From positions 480,001 to 544,000 of the forward strand of contig CBDFJG010000004.1 in NCBI GenBank assembly GCA_965248445.1: a DNA stretch of 64,000 nucleotides. The letters run 5' to 3'. Both the position numbers and the translations under genes were made by a program. Shown in pieces: positions 3,210-18,175 of this stretch. This DNA is from Planctomycetota bacterium (GTDB taxonomy: Bacteria > Planctomycetota > JAJSAM01 > JAJVHW01). The notes beneath the pieces are model-generated. The model was not told the DNA's origin, did no database searches, and saw nothing but the letters and a program-made list of their open reading frames with translations. How positions within the stretch are numbered: position 1 is the first letter of the stretch; each line of letters starts with the position of its first letter.

Positions 3210-3211
3210 CA

Positions 3212-4141
3212 ATGGCATGGGTCACCCCGCTCACCGGATCTCCGGCCAACGCTCTCGCGCAGGAGCACGCGAACCTCCTCCTGATCGACACCTGCCATAT
3301 CGGCTCCGCGGCCCCGACCACGGACCTCAACGAGGGACGGCTCTGGCTCGACAACTCCTCGGACCCCCACGTCCTGAAAATCTACAGCGACCGGCTGGCC
3401 GGAACGCCCGCGTGGAACATCGTCAACGCGGGCGTCGACGGCGACATGGACTTCCTCCTGAACCAGATCATCAACGGGAGGCTGGAGAACACAGGCTCCG
3501 CCGCGACGCCGGCCAGCGGCAACGTCGGCTACGTCTACCTCCACACGGGCTCGTCCGTCCCGCAGGTCGTCATCAGCGCGACGAAGTTCGCGACGTTCAT
3601 GGTCGGGGACACGTCGCAGTTCTTCGCGGTCCCGATCCCCCCGAACGACTGGATCGACGACGACGGGACTCCGCCGACGAAGGCGGACATCGCGATGACG
3701 ACGAGCGGCAACTTCCGAGGCAAGCAGTTCGACGCAGTCGCCGAGCGCATGAGCGTCCAGGTCGAGATCCCGCCGGCCTGGAACACGACGGCCGACCCGG
3801 TGCTCCGCGTCCGCGTGCTGATCGAAACCGCCGCCGCATCGGCCAACGAGGACATCGATGTCGAGATCGACTGGAACCGCGTCCGCGTGGGGAACGGTGA
3901 TCTCGCGACGAAGGCGAGCGTCACGAAGTTGACCCCGTACGACATCGGCTCCAACAACGCGCAGTACACGCTCCACGAGATCGACTTCGCTCTCGACCGC
4001 GCCGCGAGCGGGAACGAACTCCTCGTGGGCGACTACGTCAACATCGAGTTCGGCCTCACGAACCTCGACGAGGTCGACTCGATCATCTTCGTCGGCGCCA
4101 AGATGCGCTACCCGATGGGCACGACGATCTTCGAGGCGTAA
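3212..4141 (+). CDS. Phage virion structural / tail fibre-like protein
   Basis: GSAAPTTDLNEGRLWLDNS tail-fibre-like motif and a beta-rich C-terminus; follows the tail genes. Confidence 0.55.
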   Translation: MAWVTPLTGSPANALAQEHANLLLIDTCHIGSAAPTTDLNEGRLWLDNSSDPHVLKIYSDRLAGTPAWNIVNAGVDGDMDFLLNQIINGRLENTGSAATPASGNVGYVYLHTGSSVPQVVISATKFATFMVGDTSQFFAVPIPPNDWIDDDGTPPTKADIAMTTSGNFRGKQFDAVAERMSVQVEIPPAWNTTADPVLRVRVLIETAAASANEDIDVEIDWNRVRVGNGDLATKASVTKLTPYDIGSNNAQYTLHEIDFALDRAASGNELLVGDYVNIEFGLTNLDEVDSIIFVGAKMRYPMGTTIFEA

Positions 4142-4153
4142 CCGGAGGAAACC

Positions 4154-4378
4154 ATGAACCAGATCCAGCCCGGAGCACTGTGGGTGGGGCGCTCGTCCGA
4201 CTTCAAAGCAATGGTCGTGGGCGGCGACTACCAGCAGCAGCCGGGCGCCACGGTCGTCGTGCTGTCGAACGCTGCGTCGGACAAGGACATCGAGCGCGTG
4301 GCGGTGCGGCTCAGCGGCGGGGACCCGGCAGAGGTCGCGCCGTCGCCGGCGCGGCCGCGCACGCTCGGGGGCGGGTGA
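4154..4378 (+). CDS. Small hypothetical phage protein
   Basis: Strong GGAGGA RBS before the ATG. Confidence 0.6.
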   Translation: MNQIQPGALWVGRSSDFKAMVVGGDYQQQPGATVVVLSNAASDKDIERVAVRLSGGDPAEVAPSPARPRTLGGG

Positions 4379-4379
4379 G

Positions 4380-4875
4380 TCAATACGGCACGCGACGGAA
4401 TACAGCGGATTGCCCGCGCGCGTTCTCCACGACCGCCTTGCTCAGGCCCAGGTGTCGCAAGGGCCACACGTAGTTGCCGAACGCCATCCCTGCGATCCAC
4501 TCGAGGTTTCCGAGCACGTGGCGGTCGGTTGACACGATGAGGTTGGATCCCTCGACTCTGAAGCCCGTGACCCAGTGATACCAGGTCGTCCGCCACTTCG
4601 GCGCCCCCGAAGTTGACGTCGTAGTGGGCGCGAATCGCCTCGGCAAGCCCACTCTCCCAAGCTGCGATCCCGACATCGTCCGTGGTGCCTGGCCGGGCGG
4701 GGTAGTCCGCAAGCCGCGTGGGTGCCCCCGGCGGATCCTCCCGCCTATCGAACGTCAGTGCCGGCGCGGCGGCGACCTCGTCGGTCTTCTGCGATGACGG
4801 CGCCGGAGTGGTTCCGGCGCACGACGCGAGCGAAGCGACCGCGATGAGCGCCGCGATGCCGGTGAGGGTGTTCAC
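4380..4875 (-). pseudogene. Predicted lipoprotein with a frameshift near 4605
   Basis: GTG overlaps the upstream TGA. Signal NTLTGIAALIAVASLASC with lipobox. Reading YDVNFG continues as APKWRTTWYHW in another frame at a G5 run. Confidence 0.55.
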
Positions 4876-5234
4876 GCGCCAGCCGGAGCGAGGGCGTCCG
4901 ACGCCTCGACGACCTTGCGGCAGACGACGTCCATGAACTCGACGACGTCGCACTCGGCGCGTTGGTTGACGCCAGCGGGTGTGCCGTCGCGGTTCAGGAC
5001 GAGGTCGTGAATGATGTTGATCACCAGGTAGCAGCTGACGCTGCCAAGGATCTTCAGGCAGACCGGGAGCCCGTGCTCGTCCACAGATAGGTAGACGGGC
5101 AGGGTCGGATTGGGCTGGATGACGCGCTTCCCCTTCCGCTTCTGGAAGTGAATCAGCACGCCGTCCTTCTCCCCGTTCTCGTCGGTGTAGTACTTCACCT
5201 CAGGATCGGGAAGGAGGTTGCCCCACAACGTCAT
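4872..5234 (-). CDS. DUF2283-like protein, putative antitoxin
   Basis: VKYYTDENGEKDGVLIHF...VYLSVDEHGLPVCLKIL fits the DUF2283 pattern; has an RBS. Confidence 0.5.
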   Translation of the reverse strand: MTLWGNLLPDPEVKYYTDENGEKDGVLIHFQKRKGKRVIQPNPTLPVYLSVDEHGLPVCLKILGSVSCYLVINIIHDLVLNRDGTPAGVNQRAECDVVEFMDVVCRKVVEASDALAPAGA

Positions 5235-5251
5235 GTCTTCTCTCCTTCTTC

Positions 5252-5539
5252 CTAGAGGGGCTGGATGGACCGCACGTGGAACACGTCGGGATCCCTGGCG
5301 GCCACACTGGAGGGATCCCTGTATTCGTACCGGCCGATGAGGCGGAACTCTCGTCCCGCAACCTCGGCCTCCATGATCTGGAACTTGATGACCGGGATGA
5401 TCATCTCGGACCGCTTTACACGCTCGGGCGGCAGGTCGAGGATCATGCGAACGACCTCCTCGGGGTCAGCTTCGCACTCGACCGTGTCCCAGAAGTCTCG
5501 CGAAATATCGCTGAGAACGACTTCGAGCCGTTCCACCAT
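5252..5539 (-). CDS. Small protein, putative toxin partner (DUF4258/RelE-like fold?)
   Basis: 95 aa, directly upstream of the DUF2283-like gene; C-terminal FRLIGRY...FHVRSI strands. Confidence 0.4.
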   Translation of the reverse strand: MVERLEVVLSDISRDFWDTVECEADPEEVVRMILDLPPERVKRSEMIIPVIKFQIMEAEVAGREFRLIGRYEYRDPSSVAARDPDVFHVRSIQPL

Positions 5540-5741
5540 AGCGTCCCCTGGGGGTTTTGTAAGGCTCTCTACGGTAGCTACGAGTGCCCCCAGTGATCTG
5601 CGAAATCAGACTTCCGGCGCACCAGCGCCGCTGGCCCGAGGCCGCTGTGACGGCGTGACAAGCTAGCAGAGCAGGCGCGCGCCGTGCTTCGGTTGAACCG
5701 CCCTGACCGCCCGGGGGTTTGCCCCCAATCGTCCCGGAAAC

Positions 5742-5758
5742 GTCATACAATGTATGAC
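5742..5758. promoter_or_regulatory. Palindromic operator-like site overlapping a TACAAT -10-like hexamer
   Basis: GTCATACA-A-TGTATGAC, perfect 8-bp arms, AT-rich, in a divergent intergenic region. Confidence 0.55.
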
Positions 5759-5787
5759 ACACACGCATTCCGAGGAGGACGACCGCG

Positions 5788-6489
5788 ATGCAGGACAGCT
5801 TCAAGAACCCCCTTCAGTCGATGACAGTCTGGGGCGCCGTACTGATGCTCTTTGCCTGGCTGAAGACGAAGTACGGGTGGGACGCGACCGAGAGTCAGCT
5901 CGAGTCCTACGCGACGATCGGCTTGCCGATCGTGCTGACGGTGATCGGTCGGTTCCGCGCGACGTCGCGCGTGACGATGACCGGTGCACCGGCAGCACTG
6001 CTCGTCTGCACGCTGGTGGTCGCCGGCTGCGGCGTATTCGACGGGAAGCAGGCGAAGACGACCACCGCCGCCCCAGTGACGGCTCAGGCGGCAGAGACCG
6101 TCGGCCGAACGCAGGGCCAGAGCGTCGCGTTCGTGTTCGCGGATCAACAGCTGCTCTGGGACATCCGGTTCCCCGAGGACGTCCTCGACGACCTGACGGA
6201 CGAGCAGAAGCAGAACCGCGACGCGCGCGGCGAGAAGGCCCTTCTGCTGATCGAGACGGCGATGGACAAGTTCGCGCTGGACGACACGGCGACGAACGCC
6301 GAGCGGTTGAAGATGATGATCGCGATGCAGGAGTTCGCGAAGGGCGTCGGTACTGCGACCGGCTCGCTCGTGACGGTGTCGCTGGATCACGCCCAGATTT
6401 CCAACAACGGCGACGCAGCGGGCCTCGGGGGTGAGGGCGGGACGCCGGCCGAAGATGACCCGGAGAAGCCGGACGCTGACGGTCTGTGA
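5788..6489 (+). CDS. Holin-like N-terminus fused to a lipoprotein-like domain
   Basis: KNPLQSMTVWG...two TM segments...GRFRATSRV resembles small phage holin-like proteins, followed by ALLVCTLVVAGC. GAGGAGG RBS. Confidence 0.55.
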   Translation: MQDSFKNPLQSMTVWGAVLMLFAWLKTKYGWDATESQLESYATIGLPIVLTVIGRFRATSRVTMTGAPAALLVCTLVVAGCGVFDGKQAKTTTAAPVTAQAAETVGRTQGQSVAFVFADQQLLWDIRFPEDVLDDLTDEQKQNRDARGEKALLLIETAMDKFALDDTATNAERLKMMIAMQEFAKGVGTATGSLVTVSLDHAQISNNGDAAGLGGEGGTPAEDDPEKPDADGL

Positions 6490-6677
6490 GTTGGTGGGAC
6501 GGGCTGAGAGACCGCCTGCGCAAGCGCTGGCGCACGAACGTCCTCGGCGTGTTCTCCAAGTCGATCGCGAACGGCGTGCGGGACGACTGGAAGCCGTTCC
6601 GGCAGCAGTTCCTCGCAAGCATCGAGAACGGGGAAGACCCGGCCACAGCGTTTGACCGGGTCTTTCTCGGGAGCTGA
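6486..6677 (+). CDS. Small hypothetical phage protein
   Basis: GTGA overlap with the upstream stop. Confidence 0.5.
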   Translation: MSWWDGLRDRLRKRWRTNVLGVFSKSIANGVRDDWKPFRQQFLASIENGEDPATAFDRVFLGS

Positions 6678-6710
6678 CACAACGGGGCATCCGACCACGA
6701 GGAGGCTCAC

Positions 6711-6995
6711 ATGGCCGGGACGAAAGCACAGGCACCCGTCATCCGCTGGAAGGAAGTGCTGCCGTGGGTCCTCGCGGGCGCCGCGGCGATCGGCACGTTC
6801 TTCTCGTTCAAGTCTGAGTTCGAGGCACACGTGAAGAAGCCTGCGCACGCCGCGGCTGACCGGCGCCTCTACTCGATCGAGCAGTTCCATGCCGCCCAGG
6901 GCGTGCGGTGGGATCGCCAGGACGAGCGGTGGACAGAGCAGAAGGACGTGAACGCCAAGGTGCTGAACGGGATCGAAGACCTGAAGGAGCGATAG
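6711..6995 (+). CDS. Small membrane-anchored phage protein
   Basis: GAGGAGG RBS; one TM segment followed by a helical tail. Confidence 0.6.
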   Translation: MAGTKAQAPVIRWKEVLPWVLAGAAAIGTFFSFKSEFEAHVKKPAHAAADRRLYSIEQFHAAQGVRWDRQDERWTEQKDVNAKVLNGIEDLKER

Positions 6996-6996
6996 C

Positions 6997-7086
6997 GTGC
7001 TGACTCTCTGCTTCATCGCCCTGGGCGTCGGAGTCGTGGTCTACGTCGTGGCAGACTTGGCGCTGCACCCGCGCGCTACGACGTAG
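6997..7086 (+). CDS. 29-aa single-TM peptide
   Basis: AAGGAG upstream of GTG; LTLCFIALGVGVVVYVVA. Below the ORF track cut-off. Confidence 0.35.
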   Translation: MLTLCFIALGVGVVVYVVADLALHPRATT

Positions 7087-7196
7087 CTGCTGTTCCTGGG
7101 CGCATCTCGCGCGACGGGACCTACACACGAGCGTCGCGGCGAACCGCAGCGTGTCGAAGTCTCGCCCGCCGGAAGTCAGAGGCTAAGAAGCGCGCG

Positions 7197-7625
7197 TCAC
7201 CACGTGACGCCGACGTTGCAGCCGGACTCGGTCTGCGCCCACTGCCGGCGGACCCTCAGGTCGTTCACCAGCTTGTCGTCGTCCCAGAACTGCAGCTCCG
7301 TGAGCGCGTCCAGGACCGCCTTCGCGAGGTTGTCGATGTCCGGCTTCTTCTCGTGCACCGCTGGCGCAGAAGGCTTCAGCTTCCCGGCGTTGCGGCCGGT
7401 TCCGAAGTGCGCCTTCGGGCGGCGTAGGTAGAAGGTCAGCGAGACCGTGATCGCGGACGAGACGGGCGCCTCAGGGCGGTGCTGCTCGGACGCGACGGCG
7501 ATCTGGGACTTCCACCACTCCGCAGTCGCGGGGTCGTACACGCGTGCATGGCCGCCGCGTGAGAACGCCTTGGGACGGGGCTGGCCCTTCGGGTCGCCTC
7601 GCACGAAGAACTGCACGTACGGCAT
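7197..7625 (-). CDS. rusA: RusA family Holliday junction resolvase
   Basis: GDPKGQPRP, KPDIDNLAKAVLDAL, WDDD motifs. Confidence 0.92.
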   Translation of the reverse strand: MPYVQFFVRGDPKGQPRPKAFSRGGHARVYDPATAEWWKSQIAVASEQHRPEAPVSSAITVSLTFYLRRPKAHFGTGRNAGKLKPSAPAVHEKKPDIDNLAKAVLDALTELQFWDDDKLVNDLRVRRQWAQTESGCNVGVTW

Positions 7626-7715
7626 TGGGGATCTCCTCGCACTCCCGGGCGTTGCCAGGCCCCCGAAACGGGAGTCATCCCGCCGGGGGCCTGTGAGAGT
7701 CGATTGCGAGGACGA

Positions 7716-8462
7716 TCACCCGTAGACCGGGATGTCGGACACGTTCTTGACGAGCCACTCCTTGATCCCGTCGATCGCCTCGAGTCGCCAGAGGCCGCCG
7801 TCCGCGGGGAAGAGAGCGACGGTCGGGAGACGCGCGTCACCACCACCACGCAGGCGCAGGATGAACTCGGAGGCCGGCTGAGAGACCTCCGCGAACGTGC
7901 GCCACGGCACGAGGACCACCGGGTTCGGCACCGTGACGTTGATGCTACCGACGACGCCCTTGCGTGCCGTCGCCGTCTGCGTGACGCCGTCGTCTTCGAG
8001 CGTGCGAACGGCTTCTTCGCGGACGGTGCCGATGAGCGCGAGCACCTTGGACCGGTCGCCGCGATCCTCGAAGCAGGACTGCATCTCGATCGTGAACGTC
8101 TCGGGGTCCTTCCATTCCTTGAAGCGGACGTTCGGCAGGAGCGGCTCGGCGGTGGCGAGGCTCGTGCTCTGATGGCGATCGCCGAAGACACCGGTGCGCA
8201 GAAGCACCTCCGTGGGCCCCACGACGTGCACGAAGACGCCGCCTCGGGGCGCGGAAAACGGCTGGTGGAACGCGGATTGCGCGAACTCGGCGAAGCTCTG
8301 CAGCGTCGTGAGGTTCAGCGCCTTCGGCGTGGGCTCGGGCTTGCGTGGGTCGTGCAGCTCGACCGTCGAATACTCGCGGCCGTCCACGGACAGGATGCGG
8401 CCGGCTTTGTCGGCCAGCGCCGCCACGGCGTCGACAGCGCCGACGTCCAGGAGCTCTTCCAT
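7716..8462 (-). CDS. Conserved phage protein (possibly DUF2303/YfdQ-like)
   Basis: DDGVTQTATARKG, VPNPVVLVPWRTFAEVSQPASEFILR, LFPADGGLWRLEA are motifs of a common phage early protein. Confidence 0.6.
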   Translation of the reverse strand: MEELLDVGAVDAVAALADKAGRILSVDGREYSTVELHDPRKPEPTPKALNLTTLQSFAEFAQSAFHQPFSAPRGGVFVHVVGPTEVLLRTGVFGDRHQSTSLATAEPLLPNVRFKEWKDPETFTIEMQSCFEDRGDRSKVLALIGTVREEAVRTLEDDGVTQTATARKGVVGSINVTVPNPVVLVPWRTFAEVSQPASEFILRLRGGGDARLPTVALFPADGGLWRLEAIDGIKEWLVKNVSDIPVYG

Positions 8463-8515
8463 GTGATCCTCTATCTCCGCGCAGCGCGCGGCGTGGGGTG
8501 TGCGGGTGACGGGTG

Positions 8516-8902
8516 TCAGACGGCCTTGGCGGCCGAGTCCTCCGCGCTGCCGGCGTCACCGACGGTGCGGATCTGGTCATCTCTGTCGAACTTGATCTGA
8601 AGCTGATTCGGGTCGTTCACGACCACGACGGGGCCGCCTCTCAGTCGCCCCATGTGGACGATGCCGCCAGCGCCCTTGGCAGGAGCGGGCTTCGTCTTCA
8701 CGTCGGTCGTGACGATCGAGGCGTCTCGATCCTCGTTGGGGGCGAACGTCACCGTCAGGGTGATCGTGCGCTTCGTGTTCCACTTCGTGTTCGGGTCGAA
8801 GATGTTCTCGGCCACCTCGGCGAGCGCGGCCTGGAACATCTCCTCGGCGGCGCCCTTGCAGAGCGTCTGGAGGGTCAGGGGTGTCGGGTCGTCGGTGTTC
8901 AT
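8516..8902 (-). CDS. Conserved phage protein (often labelled replication terminator protein)
   Basis: GAAEEMFQ...ENIFDPNT...KRTITLT...DVKTK; usually paired with the downstream gene. ATG overlaps the upstream TGA. Confidence 0.6.
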   Translation of the reverse strand: MNTDDPTPLTLQTLCKGAAEEMFQAALAEVAENIFDPNTKWNTKRTITLTVTFAPNEDRDASIVTTDVKTKPAPAKGAGGIVHMGRLRGGPVVVVNDPNQLQIKFDRDDQIRTVGDAGSAEDSAAKAV

Positions 8903-9183
8903 GCGGTCGTCCCTTCCTCTTGGGGTTCGTTCGCCGCGGCCGCGAGCGCGACCTGGCGCAGCGTTCCGCGCTGTTCGTCCGACACCTTGCCGAACGTCGC
9001 GCGCAGCTTGGCGATGAGCGTGTGACGTTCGGGCGTCGTCGGGTCCAGGGCCTCGTCGATCAGCGACGTACGCTGCGCCGCGGTCCTGCCCTGCAGGGCA
9101 ACGCACACGTTCGCCATGTGCGTCTCGAACTTCACGGGGCCGCGCTTGCGCTTCGGCTTCGTGACTGGGGTTTCCTCTGACAC
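8899..9183 (-). CDS. Hypothetical phage protein
   Basis: GAGGAGG RBS; coupled to the downstream gene. Confidence 0.5.
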   Translation of the reverse strand: MSEETPVTKPKRKRGPVKFETHMANVCVALQGRTAAQRTSLIDEALDPTTPERHTLIAKLRATFGKVSDEQRGTLRQVALAAAANEPQEEGTTA

Positions 9184-10397
9184 TTCTTGTCCTCCTCCTC
9201 AGGAGCTGGCGCGTACGCCGAAAACGTGGCACTCGGGACTCTCCCGATCAGCGGTTCGGTCACGGTCTCTGGTACGAGACCGGTCCGAATCGCGAGCGAG
9301 TCGGCGAGGTCGCGAATGCCCTCAGCCGTGATGCTGGCGCCGGGGAATGCCTCAGCGAGTTGCTGGTCACTCGCGCCGTCGGAGCGCAGCTGCGCGATCG
9401 TGCGCATGACGCCATGGGTGATCCGCGTGCTCGTCGTGGGGCGATATCCGAGGACCCTCCCGTTGCCGAGGTCGATCGGGCCGTCCTCCGCTGTCGTGCG
9501 CAGTTCCCGCTCGAGCGTTCCGATGCCCGCCTTCGCGGCCAGGAAGTAGAGCGCGCGCTGCTGGTCCGTGCCCTTCTCGGGCACACCCGCCGCCATGGCG
9601 GTCGTCCAGGCATCGCACGGAAAGAGAGCGCATGACGCGCCACACGCCGCCCCGATCGTCTGCGGGAACTCCCCCGCCGCGTGCGCTGCGATCATCCGCT
9701 CGCGACCCGACCGCAGGTAGACACGGGTCGCCTCCTCCCACGGGTCGCCGCGCTTCAGCACAACGGACGCCCGCTGGCCGACGCGTAGGTTCCATATCTC
9801 GAACTTGACCTCGGGCATGCCAGGGAGGGTCGCGAGGGCGGCGAAGCAGTAGATGCGCACCTGCCAGCGTCCGATCAGGCTGTCGTTCGCGATGCGCTGG
9901 AACCCGCTCTTGAGGTCGCGGACCAGGAGTTGCGGATCCTCGACCGTCTTGCCGGGCCAACGGAGGTAGTCGTATCGTCCGGCGTACGCGGCCCCCGGCG
10001 GATGCGGCTCCCCGCGCGCGTCAAGCGCGACGAAGTTCTCGTCCAGCGCCCAGGCCATCTCGACCCCGACGTCGTATCCGCGCGGCCACGACGCCCACGG
10101 GAACCCGTCCAGCGACGTCATATTGGTGACGACCTCAATGGCGGACATGAGCCCGTCGTCGCTCATCGGTTCCGGGCCGCGCTGCCACTGCTCCAGCGCC
10201 TCGATGCCAACCGCGCGCGCGTCTGCGTCTCGGTCCACCGCGAGCCGTTCCATGATGCGCTGCGCGGCCTCGTGGATCGCGGAGCCGCGCCGGAAGGGCT
10301 CGTAGCGCACGCGCATGTCGTGGACGTACTGCGCTTCGTAGGAAGCTGGACAGTCCATGTAGACAGCGACGCTCGACTGGTGGGCGACGACGGTCAC
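9132..10397 (-). CDS. PD-(D/E)XK (RecB/Cas4-like) exonuclease
   Basis: YMDCP, GSAIHEAA, VEM, AGRYD, VRDLKSG, QVRIY and a C-terminal CGASC...C. Confidence 0.8.
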   Translation of the reverse strand: MTVVAHQSSVAVYMDCPASYEAQYVHDMRVRYEPFRRGSAIHEAAQRIMERLAVDRDADARAVGIEALEQWQRGPEPMSDDGLMSAIEVVTNMTSLDGFPWASWPRGYDVGVEMAWALDENFVALDARGEPHPPGAAYAGRYDYLRWPGKTVEDPQLLVRDLKSGFQRIANDSLIGRWQVRIYCFAALATLPGMPEVKFEIWNLRVGQRASVVLKRGDPWEEATRVYLRSGRERMIAAHAAGEFPQTIGAACGASCALFPCDAWTTAMAAGVPEKGTDQQRALYFLAAKAGIGTLERELRTTAEDGPIDLGNGRVLGYRPTTSTRITHGVMRTIAQLRSDGASDQQLAEAFPGASITAEGIRDLADSLAIRTGLVPETVTEPLIGRVPSATFSAYAPAPEEEDKKCQRKPQSRSRSASAAP

Positions 10398-10852
10398 GGG
10401 AGGGCGGGCTCCATGCGCGCCGCCTTGGCGATTCGGTCGTAGGCCACGATGCTCCCCGCCGTCGCCACGTTCAGGCAGTACTCGCCCGGAAGCACGACCA
10501 GGTGGTGGCAACGCGCGAGGATCGACGGCGGGAGGCCGTGGTCCTCGGCGCCCAGGAGGTACGCGGCGCGCTCGGGGTGCTCGAACCTGCCGAGAGGCGT
10601 CGCCGCGTCGTGCAGTTCCACACCGACCAGCGGGCACGAGTACGGGAGCCCGTCAACGAGCGCGTCGATGTCGGGGTACTCGATGAGCGGGACGTGTCGC
10701 CACGCCTTCGTCGTGTCGCTCGACTGGCGGTCGTACCGCGCCCCCACCGTGAACAGGAGCGCCGCGCCGAAGGCATGCGCGGTACGCCAGAGCGTCCCGA
10801 TGTTCACGGCGTGCTTCGGGTGGTAGACGCCGACGGCGAAGAACCCCCGCAT
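10394..10852 (-). CDS. SpoU/TrmH family RNA 2'-O-methyltransferase
   Basis: NIGTLWRTAHAFG, LLGAEDHGL, CLNVATAGSI SPOUT motifs. Confidence 0.9.
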   Translation of the reverse strand: MRGFFAVGVYHPKHAVNIGTLWRTAHAFGAALLFTVGARYDRQSSDTTKAWRHVPLIEYPDIDALVDGLPYSCPLVGVELHDAATPLGRFEHPERAAYLLGAEDHGLPPSILARCHHLVVLPGEYCLNVATAGSIVAYDRIAKAARMEPALP

Positions 10853-11721
10853 CAGTACGCAGGCGCGTCCGGGTCGAAGTCGAGGTCGAGTGGAGCGCCG
10901 AGCTCCTGGGCCGCCTCCCCTGGATCTGGCGCGGCTGGAGGCGGCAGGCTCTCGCCGCTCTCCGCGACTCCGGGCGCAAGTGGACCCGTTGGCGCCGCAC
11001 CCGGCTCCTCGTCGGCAGACGCGACGTGTTCCTGCGTGGAAGACCTGTCAGCCTCCTCGCTCGCTGTCGGGTTGACAGCCGCCTCGTCCGCCGACGCGAT
11101 GCCAGACATCTCGATCACGGGCGTGACGTCCACGGGGACGGTCTTCACGTCCGGCTCCGCGGGCACTCCGTCGCGCGATCCGATGCCGCGCGCCTCGTCC
11201 TCGTCCATGACGTAGATTCCGAAACACCGGCGGATGCCCTGGGACGCCGCCTTGTGCGCGAGCATCCGGGCGGGGTGCGAGTTCCACGGTCCGGTGTCGA
11301 GGTAGCACTCGGAGTACCACTCGCGCCACACGAACGGGCCGAGACCGGCCGCCGTCCGCTTGTGCGTGTGAATGCGGATCTCCGCCCACTTCCCGCGCGT
11401 CTCGTGTTCGCCGTCCGCCTCGTCGTGCGCGATGTAGTCCGGGTTGGCGTGCATGAGATGGAGCCAGCCGTCCACCGGGATCACGATCTGCACGCCCTTC
11501 TTCGTGGGCATGGTGTAAATCTGACGAAGGATCGGGTTCAGCCCGTGCTCCTTCGCGACCATCAGCAGGCCCATGAAGTGTGCGTTGTCGGCACCCTTGC
11601 AGCCGCACATCGACTTGATCGCGGAGAGGTACGCGCCGGGCTCCATGTCGTGCGCCGCCGCCATCGAGACGACGAGTGAGAGCTTCTCGGGGGTCTTCGC
11701 CTTGGCGAGTTCGGTGGTCAT
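10852..11721 (-). CDS. Bet/RecT family single-strand annealing recombinase
   Basis: EHGLNPILRQIY, IPVDGW, ECY, PWNSHPARMLAHKAASQGIRRCFG, DEDEA. Confidence 0.88.
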   Translation of the reverse strand: MTTELAKAKTPEKLSLVVSMAAAHDMEPGAYLSAIKSMCGCKGADNAHFMGLLMVAKEHGLNPILRQIYTMPTKKGVQIVIPVDGWLHLMHANPDYIAHDEADGEHETRGKWAEIRIHTHKRTAAGLGPFVWREWYSECYLDTGPWNSHPARMLAHKAASQGIRRCFGIYVMDEDEARGIGSRDGVPAEPDVKTVPVDVTPVIEMSGIASADEAAVNPTASEEADRSSTQEHVASADEEPGAAPTGPLAPGVAESGESLPPPAAPDPGEAAQELGAPLDLDFDPDAPAY

Positions 11722-13007
11722 GCGCTCACCGCTTCCCGAACCGCGCCTTCCACGATCTCGACGCACCCGGGCACGTCCGTCGCCACGCGCTCGACCCAGA
11801 GCTGCAGGCCCTCCTCACGCGCGAACGCGAGGATCTCCGCCATCGACGCCGGATCCAGCGCGTTGCCGTCACGCACCAGGACAACACGCAGCCGGCCGGC
11901 CATCGCCGCCGCGACGCGGACCGACGCGCGGATCTGCTCTGACGTCGAAGCCGCCGCGAAGGGGCGTCCGTTGAGCAACACCCCGTCCTCGTCGATCGCG
12001 AGCCCCTCCGCGGGCAGCGCGACGGACGCGAGCACTTCGGCCTTCTTGGCGTCGAGCGACGCGATCGTGTCCGTGAGTGACCTCACCGAGGCGCTGAGTC
12101 GCCCGTGACGCTCTTGGTTGTCCACGAGGACCCGGTTGTCGGACTCCGCCTGGGCCGCGCCCTCGTTCGCGGACGAGGCCGACGAGATGCTCTCGCGGAG
12201 CGCGTCGACGTCGAGCGCCTCGCCGTTCTCGGCCAAGTACGCCTCTGCTCGAGCGATCCGGTCCTCCTGCTCCTGCGCCTTGTCCTGCAGGCGCTCGATC
12301 TGGCTCTCGATCTCGGTGATCGTCTCGCGGGCGTTGGTGATCGCTTTCTCCGCCTCGGCGCGACGCGATGTCACGTGCTCGGCGGACTGCAGCGCCGCAA
12401 TCTGGGCGTCGACGTCCACGCGCGCCGGCACCTCGACGGGGACGCGCCCGTCGGTGAGCGCGCTCGCTTCCTTGAGCGCCCGCGAGACGTTCGTCCGCTC
12501 CGCGAACACCTCGTCGCGCTCGCGCTTCCACGCCTCGAGGTCGATCGGCAGAGGAGCGATCTCAGCCAGCATCCGCAGGCGTTCCTTATCCGCAGCCGCA
12601 GCGGTCTTCGCGCCCGGCGGCTGAGCGAATTCGACCGGATCGATGCACGCACCGAGGAGCTGGTCGATCACGCGCTGCGGCTTCCCCTGCCGAACCCCGT
12701 CCGCGTTCTTGACGAACAGCTTCTCGCGGCCATCGACGAACAGCTTCTCGATCACGAGCTCCGGTCCGTCGGGGCCACCGAGCGTCAACGTGAACGCACC
12801 GTTCTTCGCGCCGTCCCTGATCGGACGAGCTGGCGCCGCGCTGGATCCACCAAGCGCCGAGTCGATGGCTCGTATCACGCTGGTCTTCCCCTGACCGTTG
12901 CTGCCGCTCAGGACAACGGAGTCACCGCTCGGCTCCAGCTGCACGGCCGTCAGCCGACAGAAGTCGCGGGCCGTCAGTTCCAGGATCGTCATGGGTTGCT
13001 CGCTCAC
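11718..13007 (-). CDS. Phage SMC/SbcC-like AAA ATPase
   Basis: Walker A GSNGQGKT, central coiled coil, ASTSEQ signature, VLVRDGNALD. Confidence 0.85.
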   Translation of the reverse strand: MSEQPMTILELTARDFCRLTAVQLEPSGDSVVLSGSNGQGKTSVIRAIDSALGGSSAAPARPIRDGAKNGAFTLTLGGPDGPELVIEKLFVDGREKLFVKNADGVRQGKPQRVIDQLLGACIDPVEFAQPPGAKTAAAADKERLRMLAEIAPLPIDLEAWKRERDEVFAERTNVSRALKEASALTDGRVPVEVPARVDVDAQIAALQSAEHVTSRRAEAEKAITNARETITEIESQIERLQDKAQEQEDRIARAEAYLAENGEALDVDALRESISSASSANEGAAQAESDNRVLVDNQERHGRLSASVRSLTDTIASLDAKKAEVLASVALPAEGLAIDEDGVLLNGRPFAAASTSEQIRASVRVAAAMAGRLRVVLVRDGNALDPASMAEILAFAREEGLQLWVERVATDVPGCVEIVEGAVREAVSA

Positions 13008-13321
13008 GGTGTCTCTCCCGGTTTCCAAGTCATTGCCTTCGACTTCATCACCCGGCACTCGCGCACCGGACCGTTCACGACGAGCCCCAGTTCCCGCAGC
13101 TCCGGCAGGCGGCGCGACGGCGCGTGTCGTTCCATCTCGACGCCCTTCGCGATCTCCGCCGCTGTGCGTCCCGGGTGCGCGGTCACCCACGCGAGGATGG
13201 TCTCCCGCTGACGTGCTGCGCGTCCGCGCGCCTTGTTGGCGGCGAGGTGGCTCGTGAGATTGTCTGTCGCTCGTGCCCGTGGAGACGGGGGCGTGTCGAA
13301 GAGGGACCGCTGACGGATCAC
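13004..13321 (-). CDS. Winged-helix DNA-binding phage protein
   Basis: RARATDNLTSHLAA...TAAEIA...RRLPELRELGLV. Confidence 0.7.
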   Translation of the reverse strand: MIRQRSLFDTPPSPRARATDNLTSHLAANKARGRAARQRETILAWVTAHPGRTAAEIAKGVEMERHAPSRRLPELRELGLVVNGPVRECRVMKSKAMTWKPGETP

Positions 13322-13938
13322 GCGATGTGCTCCCATCGCTTCCGCAGGACGATCTTGCTAATCGCTCCGTGCCACACCCCGTACCTCTCCGCAAGGCGCT
13401 GCTGCGTGCCCCTGGGAGCGCCCGGCCCGCACACGCGGCGGATGTAGCGAACATTGTCAGCGGTGAACTTCGCGTGGCAATGCCGCTCTCCGCGCTGTGA
13501 CCGACCACGCTCCACCATGCCGCGGAGGTTGTCGGCTGGCGTACCGACGACGAGGTGCGCTGGGTTCACGCAGGGCGGGTTGTCGCATTGGTGACACACG
13601 AAGAAGCCCGGCACGACTGTCGCGCGATGATGCAGCTCCCACGAGACAACATGGGCACCCGCATTCGTTCGGCAGTTGCGGCGAGACGATGCGTTGATCC
13701 GTCCGTACCCTGCGGGCTGCCGCGAGCCCGTCCACAGCCAGCACTCGTCGGGGGCGGCGCGCTCAACCTTGTCCCAGAAGCGTTCCTCGAACGTCGGCCG
13801 CGCGCGTCGGGGGCAAGCGCACATCCATCGGTACTGACGTTGCCCCTGCCGGACGCCACTGGACCGCTGCGACACTCCGCAATGGGGGCACGCAGCCGGT
13901 CCGTTGTCGATCTTGGACGGGACGCGGGGCCTGCTCAT
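13318..13938 (-). CDS. HNH endonuclease
   Basis: ERFWDKV, CWLWTG, GYG, AHVVSW, VCHQCDNPPCVNPAHL...N; C-terminal HTH. Confidence 0.9.
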   Translation of the reverse strand: MSRPRVPSKIDNGPAACPHCGVSQRSSGVRQGQRQYRWMCACPRRARPTFEERFWDKVERAAPDECWLWTGSRQPAGYGRINASSRRNCRTNAGAHVVSWELHHRATVVPGFFVCHQCDNPPCVNPAHLVVGTPADNLRGMVERGRSQRGERHCHAKFTADNVRYIRRVCGPGAPRGTQQRLAERYGVWHGAISKIVLRKRWEHIA

Positions 13939-14177
13939 GCGCCACACCCGCACGGCGTCCCGCATGGCGGCTCGCCCGTCTGCTGACTCATCCTGATCTC
14001 GTCTGCGGTCGGCGGGACCTCGCCCGTGCCCCGGCACGCCTCGCAGTAGCCGTGCGCCGCTGCGATCTCGGGGTGCGCGTCCTTGCAGGCGTCGAGCACG
14101 TCGACTAGGACGCGCCGGTTCTTGACCGTCCCGTCAGCCAGCGTGAGGCGAGCGGCGATGAACTCGCGGTGGTTCAC
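13935..14177 (-). CDS. Small Cys-rich hypothetical phage protein
   Basis: CEACRGTG and CGTPCGC; overlapping start and stop codons. Confidence 0.45.
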   Translation of the reverse strand: MNHREFIAARLTLADGTVKNRRVLVDVLDACKDAHPEIAAAHGYCEACRGTGEVPPTADEIRMSQQTGEPPCGTPCGCGA

Positions 14178-14331
14178 GACTCGCCTCGGCGCGCGTACTC
14201 CTCGCGCAGAATGACCCCGGCGACAAGATCCAGCCCTGCGCTTGGGTCTCCGGCCCCGTGTCCGACGCGGCACGACACTTCCGACTTGAGGCGAAGCGCC
14301 GCCCGCGCGATCCACTCACGAACTCGACGAG

Positions 14332-15624
14332 ATGCGCGACCGGCTCGACAAGATGACGGACGAGTCCGAGCGCCTGCGCGACAACGTCATCGAGGCTGTC
14401 GTCGACCGCCTCGTCAAGACGCGCGCAAAAGCGGACGAGGGCATCGTCGAGCGCATCGAGTCGCGGATCGAGGACCTCGGCGAGCGCCTCACGGATCTCG
14501 CCAAGCAGGCCGCGAAGCGCGAGAGCGCGGGCGGCACGGCCCTCGACGACCACATGCGTGACATCGACGAGCGGTTCGCCGCGGTCGAGCGCGCCTCCGA
14601 GAAGGTGAAGGAAGACGCGGTCGCAACGCTCATCGACCGGATGGCGGACCGCGACGCGGGCGTCGAGAAGATCTTCGCGGAGAACCTGGTCACGCAGCTC
14701 GACACGGTGACGTCAAAGATCGAGTCGCTCGAGGAGCGTCTCTCCGCAGCAGGTGGCGACGAGCAGGAGAAGGTGCGCGTCGCGATTGAGGAGCTGACCT
14801 CGGCCGCGAAGGAGAGCGACGAGTCCGTGCAGAGCTTCGTCTCGGCACAGCTGGAAGAGACGCACGCCGAACTCCTCACGGAGCTGAACGAGCGGTTCAA
14901 CAAGCGCGACACGGATCTCTCCGCGTCGTTCCGCGACAACTTCGACGAAGTCCGCAGTTCGGTGGACGAGTTGGCGTCGCGGACGTCTGCGCAGCTCGCC
15001 GCCATGCAGGTGAGCCTCGCATCGGGTGTCGACTCGCTTCGTGACGAGAAGGGCTCGGGCGTGAACGTCGACCTCGTCGAGGCCCTCGAGTCGCGCGTCT
15101 TCACGCCGCTGAACGAGAAGGTCTCGGATCTCCGAGAGCAGGTCGACTCGCGGCACGAGGACGCGCTCAGCGCCGTGGCCGCCGCGGACGAGCGCGGCAA
15201 CGCGCTCGCCGAACGGCTCGAACAACTCGCCGAGTCCTTCGCCGGTCTCGCTAACCGCGTGGACGAGAACGCGGCAGCGCAGACACGCGCACTGGAGACG
15301 CTCGGCGAGCGTCTCACCGCCAGTTCGAGCGACGCTGCGGAGGCGCAACAGGCGCAGTTCTCCGCCGCGCTCGAACAGGCCCTCGACAAGATCGAGAAGA
15401 CAATGCACTCGGCGACAGCCAAGCCCATCGAGATCTCGGCCGAAGCCACCGACGTGCTGCTGAACAAGATCTTCGACGCCGGCGACGTGGAGCTGAGGAG
15501 CAACCTCGATCAGCTCGACGTCGACACGAGCAAGACAACCAGCGTGAAGAAGAACCTCGGACGTCTCCGGAACCTGCGCAACGCCAAGGCCGCGCAGAAC
15601 AACGGAACCGACGACGAGTCCTAA
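14332..15624 (+). CDS. Acidic coiled-coil protein, probably 5'-truncated
   Basis: All-helical and E/D/A/L-rich. No RBS. Coding-like codons begin at ~14317 and there is an in-frame stop at 14287. Confidence 0.75.
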   Translation: MRDRLDKMTDESERLRDNVIEAVVDRLVKTRAKADEGIVERIESRIEDLGERLTDLAKQAAKRESAGGTALDDHMRDIDERFAAVERASEKVKEDAVATLIDRMADRDAGVEKIFAENLVTQLDTVTSKIESLEERLSAAGGDEQEKVRVAIEELTSAAKESDESVQSFVSAQLEETHAELLTELNERFNKRDTDLSASFRDNFDEVRSSVDELASRTSAQLAAMQVSLASGVDSLRDEKGSGVNVDLVEALESRVFTPLNEKVSDLREQVDSRHEDALSAVAAADERGNALAERLEQLAESFAGLANRVDENAAAQTRALETLGERLTASSSDAAEAQQAQFSAALEQALDKIEKTMHSATAKPIEISAEATDVLLNKIFDAGDVELRSNLDQLDVDTSKTTSVKKNLGRLRNLRNAKAAQNNGTDDES

Positions 15625-15683
15625 CTAGCCCAAAACTGCTGCGGTTTGCCGGACGATGAAGCCGGCTGGGAGGAGCGAGCAAG

Positions 15684-16895
15684 ATGACACCTGACCCCAA
15701 CACTCACCGATATGAGGAACCCGGAACCGCGACGACCACGCCGCGGGCCGCCGTGGCTCCGCCGGCGCCGCCGCCGGAGGCGACGACCGTACCGATCGCG
15801 TCCAACGGACAGCCGCCTGCCGTGGCGGCCGCGCCGCCGGCGCCGAGCCGCGTAACGATCCACCAGGACGCCCACGTCACCGCCGCGCCGAAGGGCGTTG
15901 CACTGGGCCGCGGCCTGGATGTCGGCACCGCGAACCTGCTCGCGTGCCGCGAGGGCAATAAGGGCGAGCTCGTGGTCCAGAGAGAGCGCAACGCGTTCCT
16001 CGAGATCCCGAGTGAGTTCGTCGGCAGCCACGAGATGCTGACCAAGCTGAATGTGCCATACGTCCAGTTCAAGGACCGCCTTTACGTGATCGGCGACGCG
16101 TCGTTCAACCTCGCGAACATGTTCGCCCGCGAAGTGCGCCGCCCCATGGCGGACGGCTTCCTCTCGCCGGCGGAACAGGACGCGATCCCGATGTTGAAGT
16201 TCATCGTGCACCGCCTGCTCGGCGAGCCCAGCACGCCCGGAGAGCACGTGTGCTTCTGCATCCCGGCGGAGTCGATCGACAAGGCGAACGACACCGTCTA
16301 TCACGAGGGCATCGTGTCGGGCATCCTCAGGAAGCTCGGCTACACGCCGCAGCCGATGAACGAAGCGCACGCGATCGTGTACAGCTCGCTCGCGGAGCAG
16401 GACTTCACCGGTATCGGTGTGTCCTGCGGCGGCGGCATGTTCAACGTGTGTGTCTCGTACCGCACGATCCCCGCGCTGACGTTCTCCGTCGCGCGCGGTG
16501 GCGACTGGATCGACACGAGCGTCTCCCGCGTCATGGGCATCCCCAGGACGCGCGCCACGGCGATCAAGGAGAACAACGTCGACCTGCGCGAGCCGAAATC
16601 GCGCGAAGAGGAAGCGGTCGTTCTCTACTACCGCAACCTCATCCAGTACGTCCTCACGAACCTCAAGCAGCGCTTCGCGCTCGCTCGCGACGTGCCGCAG
16701 TTCGAGGCGCCCGTCGAGGTCGTCGTAGCCGGTGGCACCAGCCTGGTCGGAGGCTTCGTAGAGGTCTTCGCCGAGGAGTTGCAGAAGGTGGATCTCCCGA
16801 TCCCCATCGCCGGCGTGCGCCGTGCCGACGACGCCATCTCGGCCGTCGTCCGCGGATGCCTGATCGCCGCGAACCTGAGTTCCGACGAAGACTAG
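15684..16895 (+). CDS. Actin-like ATPase, volactin-like
   Basis: GLDVGT phosphate-1, RNAFLEI, RRPM, NEAHAIVYS, GIGVSCGGGMFNVC, FSVARGGDWID, VVAGGTS, VVRGCLIAA. Pro/Ala-rich N-terminus. Confidence 0.85.
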   Translation: MTPDPNTHRYEEPGTATTTPRAAVAPPAPPPEATTVPIASNGQPPAVAAAPPAPSRVTIHQDAHVTAAPKGVALGRGLDVGTANLLACREGNKGELVVQRERNAFLEIPSEFVGSHEMLTKLNVPYVQFKDRLYVIGDASFNLANMFAREVRRPMADGFLSPAEQDAIPMLKFIVHRLLGEPSTPGEHVCFCIPAESIDKANDTVYHEGIVSGILRKLGYTPQPMNEAHAIVYSSLAEQDFTGIGVSCGGGMFNVCVSYRTIPALTFSVARGGDWIDTSVSRVMGIPRTRATAIKENNVDLREPKSREEEAVVLYYRNLIQYVLTNLKQRFALARDVPQFEAPVEVVVAGGTSLVGGFVEVFAEELQKVDLPIPIAGVRRADDAISAVVRGCLIAANLSSDED

Positions 16896-16915
16896 CCAAG
16901 TCTCGAGAGCGCGAC

Positions 16916-16939
16916 GCCGGCGTCCTTCGGGACGTCGGC
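16916..16939 (+). terminator. Strong hairpin after the actin gene
   Basis: GCCGGCGTCC-TTCG-GGACGTCGGC: 10-bp stem, cUUCGg loop, no U tract. Confidence 0.5.
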
Positions 16940-17023
16940 CCGCGCAGCTCGTTCCACCCGCGGTCCGCCCGTTGAAGCCAAGCGCATCCGCGTTCGGTGG
17001 AGGGCGGGCCGCACCTGATTCCC

Positions 17024-17059
17024 GCCATACCGAGACCGGTACCAATCGGCGCACGGTGT
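17024..17059 (+). repeat. Left 36-bp inverted repeat of the RAYT element
   Basis: GCCATACCGAGACCGGTACCAATCGGCGCACGGTGT, the exact reverse complement of 18140-18175. Confidence 0.95.
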
Positions 17060-17082
17060 CCCCGGACGCCGCGTCCGGGAGT

Positions 17083-18096
17083 TCAGCGGCCCGGCACGTC
17101 CCAGTCGCGGTGGACGCTCTCGGTCACGCACGCCGCCGCGAGCGCCACATAGTCAGGTCTGCATCGCAACGCCAGGCGGTGCGAGTCCAGCAGACCACGG
17201 GCGGTGGATCGCGTCATCCGCAGCAGCGCGGCAATCTCCATGAGCGACAGGCTCGCGAGCGAACGCAGCAATCCGACAGCCAGCAAGTCCGCCGGATCGC
17301 GTGAGCGGGCGCCTGGTGCCGTTCGAATCGCGTCGAGCCCGTGCGCACGCTCCGTCACTACTGCGACAACTGTCCGCGAGTGAGCGACGGGAAGTCCCGG
17401 CTGTGTCCCGTCAGCCAGCGCGGTCTTGCGGCGCATCCACTCGATCGCTCTCCCGTCAGCACCGTCGAGGAGGTCGACGAGCGGATCGTCCTGCCCGTCA
17501 CGAGCCAGAAGGCGTCGATCGACCAGCGCCTCCTGCTCGGGAGTGAGCCGTGCGCCGAACACCGACTCGTAGTCCTGACTGCAGTAACTGGTCGAACCTC
17601 GAGCCCTCATCACGCGCGTCGCGACCTCCCCGTGGCTCAGCCACTTCGGTCGGCCTCCGCAACGGTAGAACCGCGCGCTTCCCCACGGGTAGGCCGACGC
17701 ATCGCTGACGAGCCCCGCGGAGACGGCGTTTCCATCGATGTACCGGATCAGCGTGTGCATGTAGGCGTCGGATTGCACACGCTTGGAACGGAAGCGACCG
17801 CGGAACAGCGGTCCATCGCGGCGCCTCTCTCTGTTGAACCGACGGGCGTACGCGTTCTGAACGCGCCTCATGCCACGCCACATCGAACCAGTGGGGCTCC
17901 GAACCAGCAGGTGGAAGTGCGTTGTCAGGAGGCAGTACGCGTGGATCTCGAGCGATCCGCCACGCACCGCACGCGCCAAGCAGGCGAGGAAGTACCGGCA
18001 GTCGCTGCGTCGTTCGAACAGTGTCCGCTTCGCGACACCGCGGTTGTAGACGTGGTGGAATGCGAAGGGCTCGTCGTGTCGCGCGCGCTGTGCCAT
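17083..18096 (-). CDS. REP-associated tyrosine (Y1/HUH) transposase with C-terminal HTH
   Basis: FHHVYNRG, YCLLTTHFHLL (HUH), RDGPLFRGRF, RYIDGN, YPWGS. Confidence 0.92.
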   Translation of the reverse strand: MAQRARHDEPFAFHHVYNRGVAKRTLFERRSDCRYFLACLARAVRGGSLEIHAYCLLTTHFHLLVRSPTGSMWRGMRRVQNAYARRFNRERRRDGPLFRGRFRSKRVQSDAYMHTLIRYIDGNAVSAGLVSDASAYPWGSARFYRCGGRPKWLSHGEVATRVMRARGSTSYCSQDYESVFGARLTPEQEALVDRRLLARDGQDDPLVDLLDGADGRAIEWMRRKTALADGTQPGLPVAHSRTVVAVVTERAHGLDAIRTAPGARSRDPADLLAVGLLRSLASLSLMEIAALLRMTRSTARGLLDSHRLALRCRPDYVALAAACVTESVHRDWDVPGR

Positions 18097-18139
18097 CGGC
18101 TCCTGCGGTGACGAGGACGCAGGAGTGAGCGCGCGGGTT

Positions 18140-18175
18140 ACACCGTGCGCCGATTGGTACCGGTCTCGGTATGGC
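18140..18175 (-). repeat. Right 36-bp inverted repeat of the RAYT element
   Basis: Exact reverse complement of 17024-17059. Confidence 0.95.

Follow-up and report, generated by a model that had tools for sequence, protein, structure and literature searches.

A planctomycete actin of the volactin/Mad28 family and its disrupted partner gene, whose product is predicted to bind the actin through a C-terminal tail

The 64,000-nucleotide stretch considered here (the window) spans positions 480,001 to 544,000 of contig CBDFJG010000004.1 of a Planctomycetota bacterium (assembly GCA_965248445.1) and encodes, on its forward strand, an actin of 403 amino acids (window positions 15684–16895) that groups with haloarchaeal volactin and with Mad28 of deep-branching magnetotactic bacteria. 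Separated from it by 59 bp, the remnant of a coiled-coil partner gene lies directly upstream (14332–15624, forward strand; 430 amino acids). With reasonable rather than strong confidence, the pair can be read as a two-gene cytoskeletal unit, composed of an ATP-binding actin and an adaptor whose C-terminal tail captures or caps filament ends, of which the copy in the window is probably impaired or a relic. The actin family and filament formation by Mad28 were known already; the adaptor family and the tail shared by its members appear to be new. No published description of either was found in a literature search that had subscription journals outside its reach.

Residues 76–396 of the actin match the Pfam Volactin family (PF25216) at 274.9 bits (cut-off 35) over model positions 3–321 of 321, and the catalytic positions (D79, T82, E227, S247-x-G249, and G350-G351) are intact and match those of the family. 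An earlier note, made from the DNA letters alone, had set the protein closer to volactin than to MreB, FtsA, or MamK; the eight actin motifs on which it drew are all present (GLDVGT at residue 77, RNAFLEI at 102, RRPM at 152, YHE at 206, NEAHAIVYS at 226, FTGIGVSCGGG at 241, FSVARGGDWID at 267, and YYRNL at 315), both reading frames lie where it had placed them, and family profiles, tree, and identities agree in favoring volactin over MreB, FtsA, PilM, and MamK. Scores on other actin-like profiles remained under their cut-offs (MreB_Mbl, 18.7 against 27; FtsA, 15.7 against 31.8; TIGR ftsA, 17.3 against 175.9; pilM, 12.3 against 133), the MamK family was absent from the listed profile matches, and BLAST returned no significant match to MreB or MamK-like proteins. 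Identity reaches 40–42% with three named haloarchaeal volactin homologs (Halogeometricum, Natrinema, and Haloarcula) and 33–41% with two large uncultured phage records, and several planctomycete homologs already carry the NCBI label 'volactin'. Following a Pro/Ala-rich leader of ~70 residues, the protein has an intact actin fold (AlphaFold model; predicted local distance difference test score, pLDDT, 95; predicted template modeling score, pTM, 0.92), for which Foldseek matched MreB, MamK, BeeR, and actin at 12–20% identity, with no close relative among solved structures and no close viral structure in a BFVD fold search.

In a FastTree phylogeny of 224 rows, the actin falls within a planctomycete group (19 rows; support 98), the haloarchaeal, Mad28-motif, and most of the phage rows each occupy groups of their own, and the 214 rows of the family exclude MreB and nine MamK-like rows, which sit on long branches (support 92). 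The tree samples the metagenome loci (10 of 80) and the viral loci (about half), and has no rows for FtsA, PilM, EutJ, or salactin; as most rows lack a taxonomy (the taxon is known for three of 20 cluster representatives, from the Omnitrophota, Planctomycetota, and Patescibacteria), no direction of transfer is claimed. Judged by sequence, the actin is a new member of the known volactin/Mad28 family, and is not volactin proper in the sense of a VolA ortholog, as it is excluded from the haloarchaeal clade (13 rows; support 100) and has a partner without DUF7139. With VolA of Haloferax volcanii (HVO_2015, next to the CdpA-like HVO_2016) it shares the PF25216 family (275 bits), and with the haloarchaeal volactins, through whose named homologs rather than the HVO_2015 and HVO_2016 sequences themselves the comparison was made, a serine at phosphate 2, the order of partner then actin, and a related helix motif in the partner tail. 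It is set apart by its separate branch and by the Pro/Ala leader, and whereas the volactin partner is a DUF7139 protein with four transmembrane (TM) segments, the planctomycete partner combines a coiled coil with an N-terminal domain of its own. A second planctomycete subfamily (L038–L040) lies closer to the haloarchaeal branch, and its upstream gene ends in a differing, possibly related N-F-E strand-helix motif.

The phosphate-1, connect-1, and phosphate-2 motifs of Mad28 match the family consensus and the window actin, the published forms being x-E-x-x at connect 1 and S-x-G-x-G at phosphate 2 (PMC10653835; PMC12713370 Fig. S9). The comparison was made through these motifs rather than a named full-length sequence of Mad28. 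Two proteins from the databases that carry the Mad28 form of the phosphate-2 motif (P0259 and P0260), neither itself named Mad28, reach 266 and 277 bits with PF25216 and show 33–34% identity to the window actin. Despite the shared motifs, the Mad28-motif rows make up a separate clade (support 99) at that low identity, and Mad28 has an N-terminal amphipathic helix of its own. Like the planctomycete actins, Mad28 works with a coiled-coil protein: it positions magnetosome chains, and a two-hybrid interaction was reported only with the coiled-coil Mad25 (PMC12748827). Since filaments of Mad28 have been obtained both in E. coli and in vitro (PMC10653835), bacterial filament formation in the family is established and no first is claimed here, and the description of the module as uncharacterised does not apply to the bacterial members. 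Magnetosome genes, for which the genome was not searched, were not seen beside the window locus, where the neighbors are a prophage, a Y1 transposase, a pilin-like gene, and an isocitrate dehydrogenase. The names Mad28 and volactin occur together in no paper of the open literature searched, and the available parts of PMC10746226 (on salactin) and 10.64898/2026.10.26.761892 make no mention of volactin.

Intact planctomycete partners begin with a conserved N-terminal domain, continue as a coiled coil that varies in length, and end in a conserved tail in which one asparagine is invariant. The tail (residues 364–420 of the window partner; 15421–15591, forward strand) runs from a helix ending in F through an S-N-L element and a beta-strand to a basic amphipathic helix, and the partner ending quoted in the earlier note is found within it, at residues 390–416. 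The N-terminal domain matches no Pfam family and is modeled, at low confidence (pTM 0.33), as two helices followed by a long helix; its Atlas matches below 0.9, crescentin among them, serve as leads only. The planctomycete partners have no membrane segment, with hydropathy maxima of 0.9–1.3 versus 2.4–2.5 in the haloarchaeal partners.

The partner is conserved as an upstream neighbor of the actin. Within non-redundant planctomycete loci, 47 of 58 actin genes have the tail in the upstream gene, 44 of these 47 matches having come from the training set of the profile and the three held-out matches scoring 28–61 bits; the other 11 comprise three second genes of tandem pairs, one gene cut at the end of its locus, and seven divergent members. 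A less circular test with 41 genomes, which are related and not independent, found the tail in 18 of the 20 with an actin over the cut-off and in none of the 21 others; each of the 20 matches to the tail lay directly upstream of an actin gene. Among 283 stored proteins there was no fusion of partner and actin bearing the tail.

That the basic C-terminal peptide may bind the actin had been suggested from the sequence, and the alignment, co-occurrence, profile tests, and complex model point to the tail as an actin-binding element. Modeled with the actin core, the tail gave an interaction prediction score from aligned errors (ipSAE) of 0.73, compared with 0.00 for the best of three controls; in calibration, the ipSAE mark was reached by 116 of 157 solved pairs and 2 of 215 mismatched pairs. 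The runs share at least 93% of contacts, with a partner pLDDT of at least 73, and a search for solved structures related to the actin family or to the tail found none that the model could have copied. In the model, tail residues 389–392, which include the invariant asparagine, add as an antiparallel strand against actin 125–128, residues 397–401 lie as a strand against actin 97–101, and the predicted interface further lists actin 233–241, 260–261, and 390–398 together with the tail helix (405–416). From the residue lists and the register of the motifs, the basic helix most likely sits in the groove between subdomains IA and IIA, to which the interface positions are taken to correspond through equivalent actin residues, and conservation of F241 and L393 in this groove is high in most groups. 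On eukaryotic actin, the same IA/IIA groove is the binding site of WH2 helices, in an order of elements that is the reverse of the strand-before-helix order of the tail.

An upstream-encoded adaptor with a C-terminal peptide on the filament-end face of its actin (here as predicted) is also a feature of ParM–ParR of plasmid R1, although no sequence relationship was found to ParM–ParR or to WH2 binders. The ParR peptide binds the polymerisation interface of ParM and so is confined to the barbed end (PMC9178275), and volactin filaments attach to the membrane by their tips and show ParM-like instability (PMC10869688). By analogy with H. volcanii volactin and Mad28, the planctomycete actin would polymerise into dynamic cytoplasmic filaments, and the adaptor, with its helical domain at the N-terminus, a variable spacer of coiled coil, and a tail of ~55 residues, would add beta-strands to the first half of the actin, capture filament ends as ParR does for ParM, and tie them to whatever its N-terminus holds, which in haloarchaea would be the membrane, through a 4-TM CdpA-like domain. 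The role would be one of positioning or shape and not of core division, and tail capture of this kind would account for the membrane-anchored tips of volactin.

Alternatively, the tail may bind the actin and sequester monomers, nucleate, or depolymerise rather than anchor filament ends. A model with one monomer and one tail cannot separate capture from sequestration, and the helix is doubled in the haloarchaeal partners and in four planctomycete partners (L006, L008, L009, and L037), a repetition also seen in tandem WH2 nucleators. This alternative is unlikely without being far-fetched, as the tail never occurs apart from a part that localises or serves as a scaffold, either the 4-TM DUF7139 or the N-terminal domain and coiled coil, and volactin tips are anchored to the membrane (PMC10869688).

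Elements resembling the tail recur beyond the planctomycetes. A gene for a four-TM DUF7139 protein precedes all three named haloarchaeal volactins, its product ending in two copies of a short helix that resembles the last part of the planctomycete tail; the same helix motif closes many phage partners. At a threshold of at least 6 bits, a tail profile built from planctomycetes only matched upstream open reading frames (ORFs) in 34 of the 80 haloarchaeal-type loci and in 11 of the 32 viral loci (58 and 27 distinct actin sequences, respectively, the viral loci having been gathered with single-protein queries and biased to two clades), compared with 0 of 3653 and 1 of 1799 other ORFs of those loci; in the host genome it matched one of 3120 coding-like ORFs, namely the partner. 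In profile–profile comparison, the planctomycete tail scored 28.4 with the archaeal and 28.3 with the phage tails (shuffled maxima, 14.0 and 10.0), the archaeal and phage tails scored 24.0 with each other (shuffled maximum, 18.1), and one viral locus encodes a full partner with N-terminal domain and tail (38.9 bits). The likeness may reflect common ancestry or convergence on one binding site; it falls short of proof because single scores are weak and loci are near-duplicated. At a confidence slightly below even, one cross-domain family could unite volactin and Mad28 with hundreds of actins from planctomycetes and large phages, and most of it would be served by an undescribed, portable end-binding peptide. 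This strand and amphipathic helix would be a prokaryotic counterpart of WH2 and ParR and would be carried on interchangeable N-terminal modules, of which haloarchaea would use a CdpA-like membrane domain, planctomycetes a coiled coil, and phages a small domain. In the proteomics of the volactin paper, HVO_2016 moved with HVO_2015 in three significant comparisons, and not in a fourth, of one data set, and was not significant in the other (PMC10869688); volactin was weakly enriched in a CdpA pull-down (p = 0.06; PMC12126565).

Several points, besides the training-set overlap noted above, weigh against end capture by a common tail. Mad28 polymerises and localises in E. coli without a partner, seemingly by means of its own N-terminal helix (PMC12713370), and seven divergent planctomycete actins have no tail-scoring partner. 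The complex was modeled for the planctomycete pair only, with a calibration that holds roughly for the alignments used, its output gives no list of the actin residues touched by the tail helix, and beyond F241 and L393, conservation within the family is not strong at most positions of the groove. Outside the planctomycetes, 46 of the 80 haloarchaeal-type and 21 of the 32 viral loci score under 6 bits, and individual archaeal and phage tails, at 4–14 bits, are not significant alone.

A ParMR-like or MamK/MamJ-like machine that segregates DNA or an organelle, with the adaptor N-terminus holding the cargo, would be consistent with the presence of homologs on two phage records (485 and 595 kb) and at 32 viral loci, with a homolog fused to a ParB-type helix-turn-helix (HTH) domain (P0128), with the positioning of magnetosome chains by Mad28 (PMC12748827), and with the ParM-like instability of volactin (PMC10869688). 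Such a role is nonetheless improbable: no scanned partner has a Pfam DNA-binding domain over the cut-off (centromere-like repeats, as in ParMRC, were not searched for in intact loci), the N-terminal domain is modeled as the helical arrangement described above, and the reported volactin phenotype is one of cell shape (PMC10869688).

Several other arrangements occur within the family. Volactin-family actins in large phage or viral contigs of up to 595 kb (L052, L053, L054, and L159–L190) are often found amid virion-like genes, and one clade has its partner and actin genes separated by a ferritin-like gene. Actins also occur as tandem pairs, as fusions of two actins, and in other fusions (L016, L037, and L073; P0122, P0128, P0148, and P0259), with fusion partners that include the ParB-type HTH, a Wzz/tyrosine-kinase-like module, and a zinc ribbon, and many representatives of ~700 amino acids (P0122–P0271) match in two pieces around a large, intein-like insertion near residues 175–200. 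On Halogeometricum pHBOR01 (L049), two further shape determinants, rdfA and an SMC-like gene of the Sph3 type, lie ~3–5 kb from a volactin homolog.

The window does not hold the intact two-gene module that had been described, as its partner gene is broken, with the 5′ part displaced by prophage DNA. The conserved N-terminal domain, present in 12 of 12 close relatives, is lacking, and the first ATG aligns to approximately residue 185 of four close homologs (the frame is open from 14290), so that the 'long acidic coiled-coil gene' of the earlier note (21.6% Asp and Glu) is only the 3′ part of the family gene. Directly upstream are the early genes of a tailed prophage, in the opposite direction; its right part occupies 1–14310 on the reverse strand (PHROG matches; Pfam RecT, PDDEXK_1, and HNH_3), a boundary that is approximate and was set where homology to intact partners starts. 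Tail genes on the forward strand are followed by RusA, exonuclease, RecT-like, and HNH genes on the reverse strand, and the prophage extends left to ~G000:C4:456800 with small terminase subunit, portal, major head, and tape measure genes. The first 32 codons of the partner and their ribosome-binding site were located on another contig (G000:C3:1678690-1678785) with a profile of close N-terminal domains (E = 9e-5; 9–15 of 32 gap-free identities to 15 homologs), and this fragment ends exactly where a phage-like segment, also present on C2, begins. Codons ~33–175 (about 145) were not found in the assembly, and a comparison of the genes upstream of the C3 fragment with the loci of 15 relatives gave only noise. 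As a point against this reconstruction, the broad N-domain profile A3 matched nothing in the host genome at E ≤ 0.001, the short C3 fragment included. An element may have inserted near codon 32, with a later rearrangement removing the middle of the gene, and the remnant and the actin would have lost their native promoter.

The reading frames of the tail and the actin are still intact in the window, and proportions of nonsynonymous differences (pN) of ~0.10–0.14 in the actin, compared with synonymous proportions (pS) of ~0.39–0.49 against four relatives, place selection until at least recently. These values, together with a repeat-rich assembly (201 high-copy segments and overlapping contig ends), could be taken to mean that the split is an assembly artefact and that living cells carry an intact module. 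This is very improbable, as a separately assembled contig of 37,939 bp spans the junction (window positions 12500–17052) without differences in four of four runs from one sample, the missing codons are absent from the assembly search, and the C3 fragment stops exactly at the element end found in other copies. With its adaptor gene split by prophage DNA and cut off from start and promoter, the unit in the host genome is probably impaired or a recent relic. Related phage-like element ends are found at three sites (G000:C3:1678775, C2:348715, and C3:125044), with a common purine-rich junction core and different flanks, which suggests an integrase of relaxed specificity; the window contains no tRNA that could serve as an integration target. 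Repeats at least 95% identical make up 572 kb of the 5.40-Mb host genome (347 kb in at least five other copies), the 201 high-copy segments are of insertion-sequence size (one, when checked, was an rve-type transposase), and contig ends overlap by a stretch of ~7–13 kb.

The actin gene is preceded by a purine-rich ribosome-binding site (15668–15675, as judged from the spacer) and followed by a strong GC-rich hairpin (16904–16951, forward strand; −37.2 kcal/mol; z = −4.2; 0 of 200 shuffles equally stable), as had been claimed. The hairpin occurs once in the genome, has no U-tract, and drew no call in a terminator scan; most of 12 folded relatives have strong hairpins 3′ of the actin, unrelated in sequence, and a transcript 3′ end or a stabiliser is a possible function. 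A sigma-70 promoter scan of 13900–17300 found none, which is uninformative with 0.1 expected by chance. Further downstream, a Y1/IS200-like transposase gene (17083–18096, reverse strand) lies between inverted copies of a ~35-bp repeat (17024–18175) that occurs about 10 times in the genome and resembles a REP/RAYT unit, and sample contigs show a joint skipping 1086 bp and reduced depth over this interval.

The host is a planctomycete, a possibility that the earlier note had raised, with all 12 of the closest loci titled Planctomycetota or a lower rank of it, and no tubulin/FtsZ match was found in its genome (92% complete), which has one PF25216 gene, a separate true MreB, and no matched MamK-like gene. 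Replacement of FtsZ in planctomycete division might be proposed, given that tubulin/FtsZ was also not found in five of five family members tested and that the partner in archaea is homologous to CdpA, which anchors the division machinery (PMC12126565). The distribution of PF25216, over the cut-off in 113 of 301 genomes of the phylum and 8 of 17 of the class, is common but patchy, unlike that of a universal division protein, which weakens the FtsZ-related interest attached to the locus; the partner is broken in the host, volactin filaments are independent of the FtsZ ring (PMC10869688), haloarchaea have both systems, and a substitute for FtsZ is scarcely credible. In one planctomycete family (f6), 16 of 16 genomes matched a divergent PF25216 subfamily (L031, L055, and L064; 22–25% identical), which has no tail partner and in many cases lacks the catalytic glutamate.

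MamK, saltatorellin, and MreB share the actin fold (TM-scores of ~0.6–0.73 to MamK and MreB) and all occur in planctomycetes, but MamK and MreB differ in identity (at most 20%), in having aspartate for serine at phosphate 2, and in their position as a far outgroup. Of 121 planctomycete genomes, 32 have MamK-family actins that exceed the curated cut-off (L191–L202), frequently together with PF25216. Saltatorellin was rejected as the same protein, having been described as MamK-like in Saltatorellus (10.1101/817700) and listed among MamK sequences, an exclusion that comes from the papers, as a primer-derived pattern matched 0 of 401 genomes. The bioRxiv supplements of the Saltatorellota paper (Table S4 and Fig. 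S6), outside the literature search, may list these actins.

With its partner broken, the window copy is a poor experimental subject, and the intact relatives (L002–L013) suit better. For FtsZ-less planctomycetes, the family represents a third common actin system, besides MreB and MamK-like proteins, and it joins the Mad28 and volactin literatures. Few binding motifs of prokaryotic actins are known, and the tail would be a short element common to archaeal, bacterial, and phage partners, offering a direct test of what holds volactin tips to the membrane of H. volcanii. If the cross-domain reading is true, HVO_2016 would be the missing membrane anchor of those tips, and large phages would bring an actin-adaptor cytoskeleton of their own.

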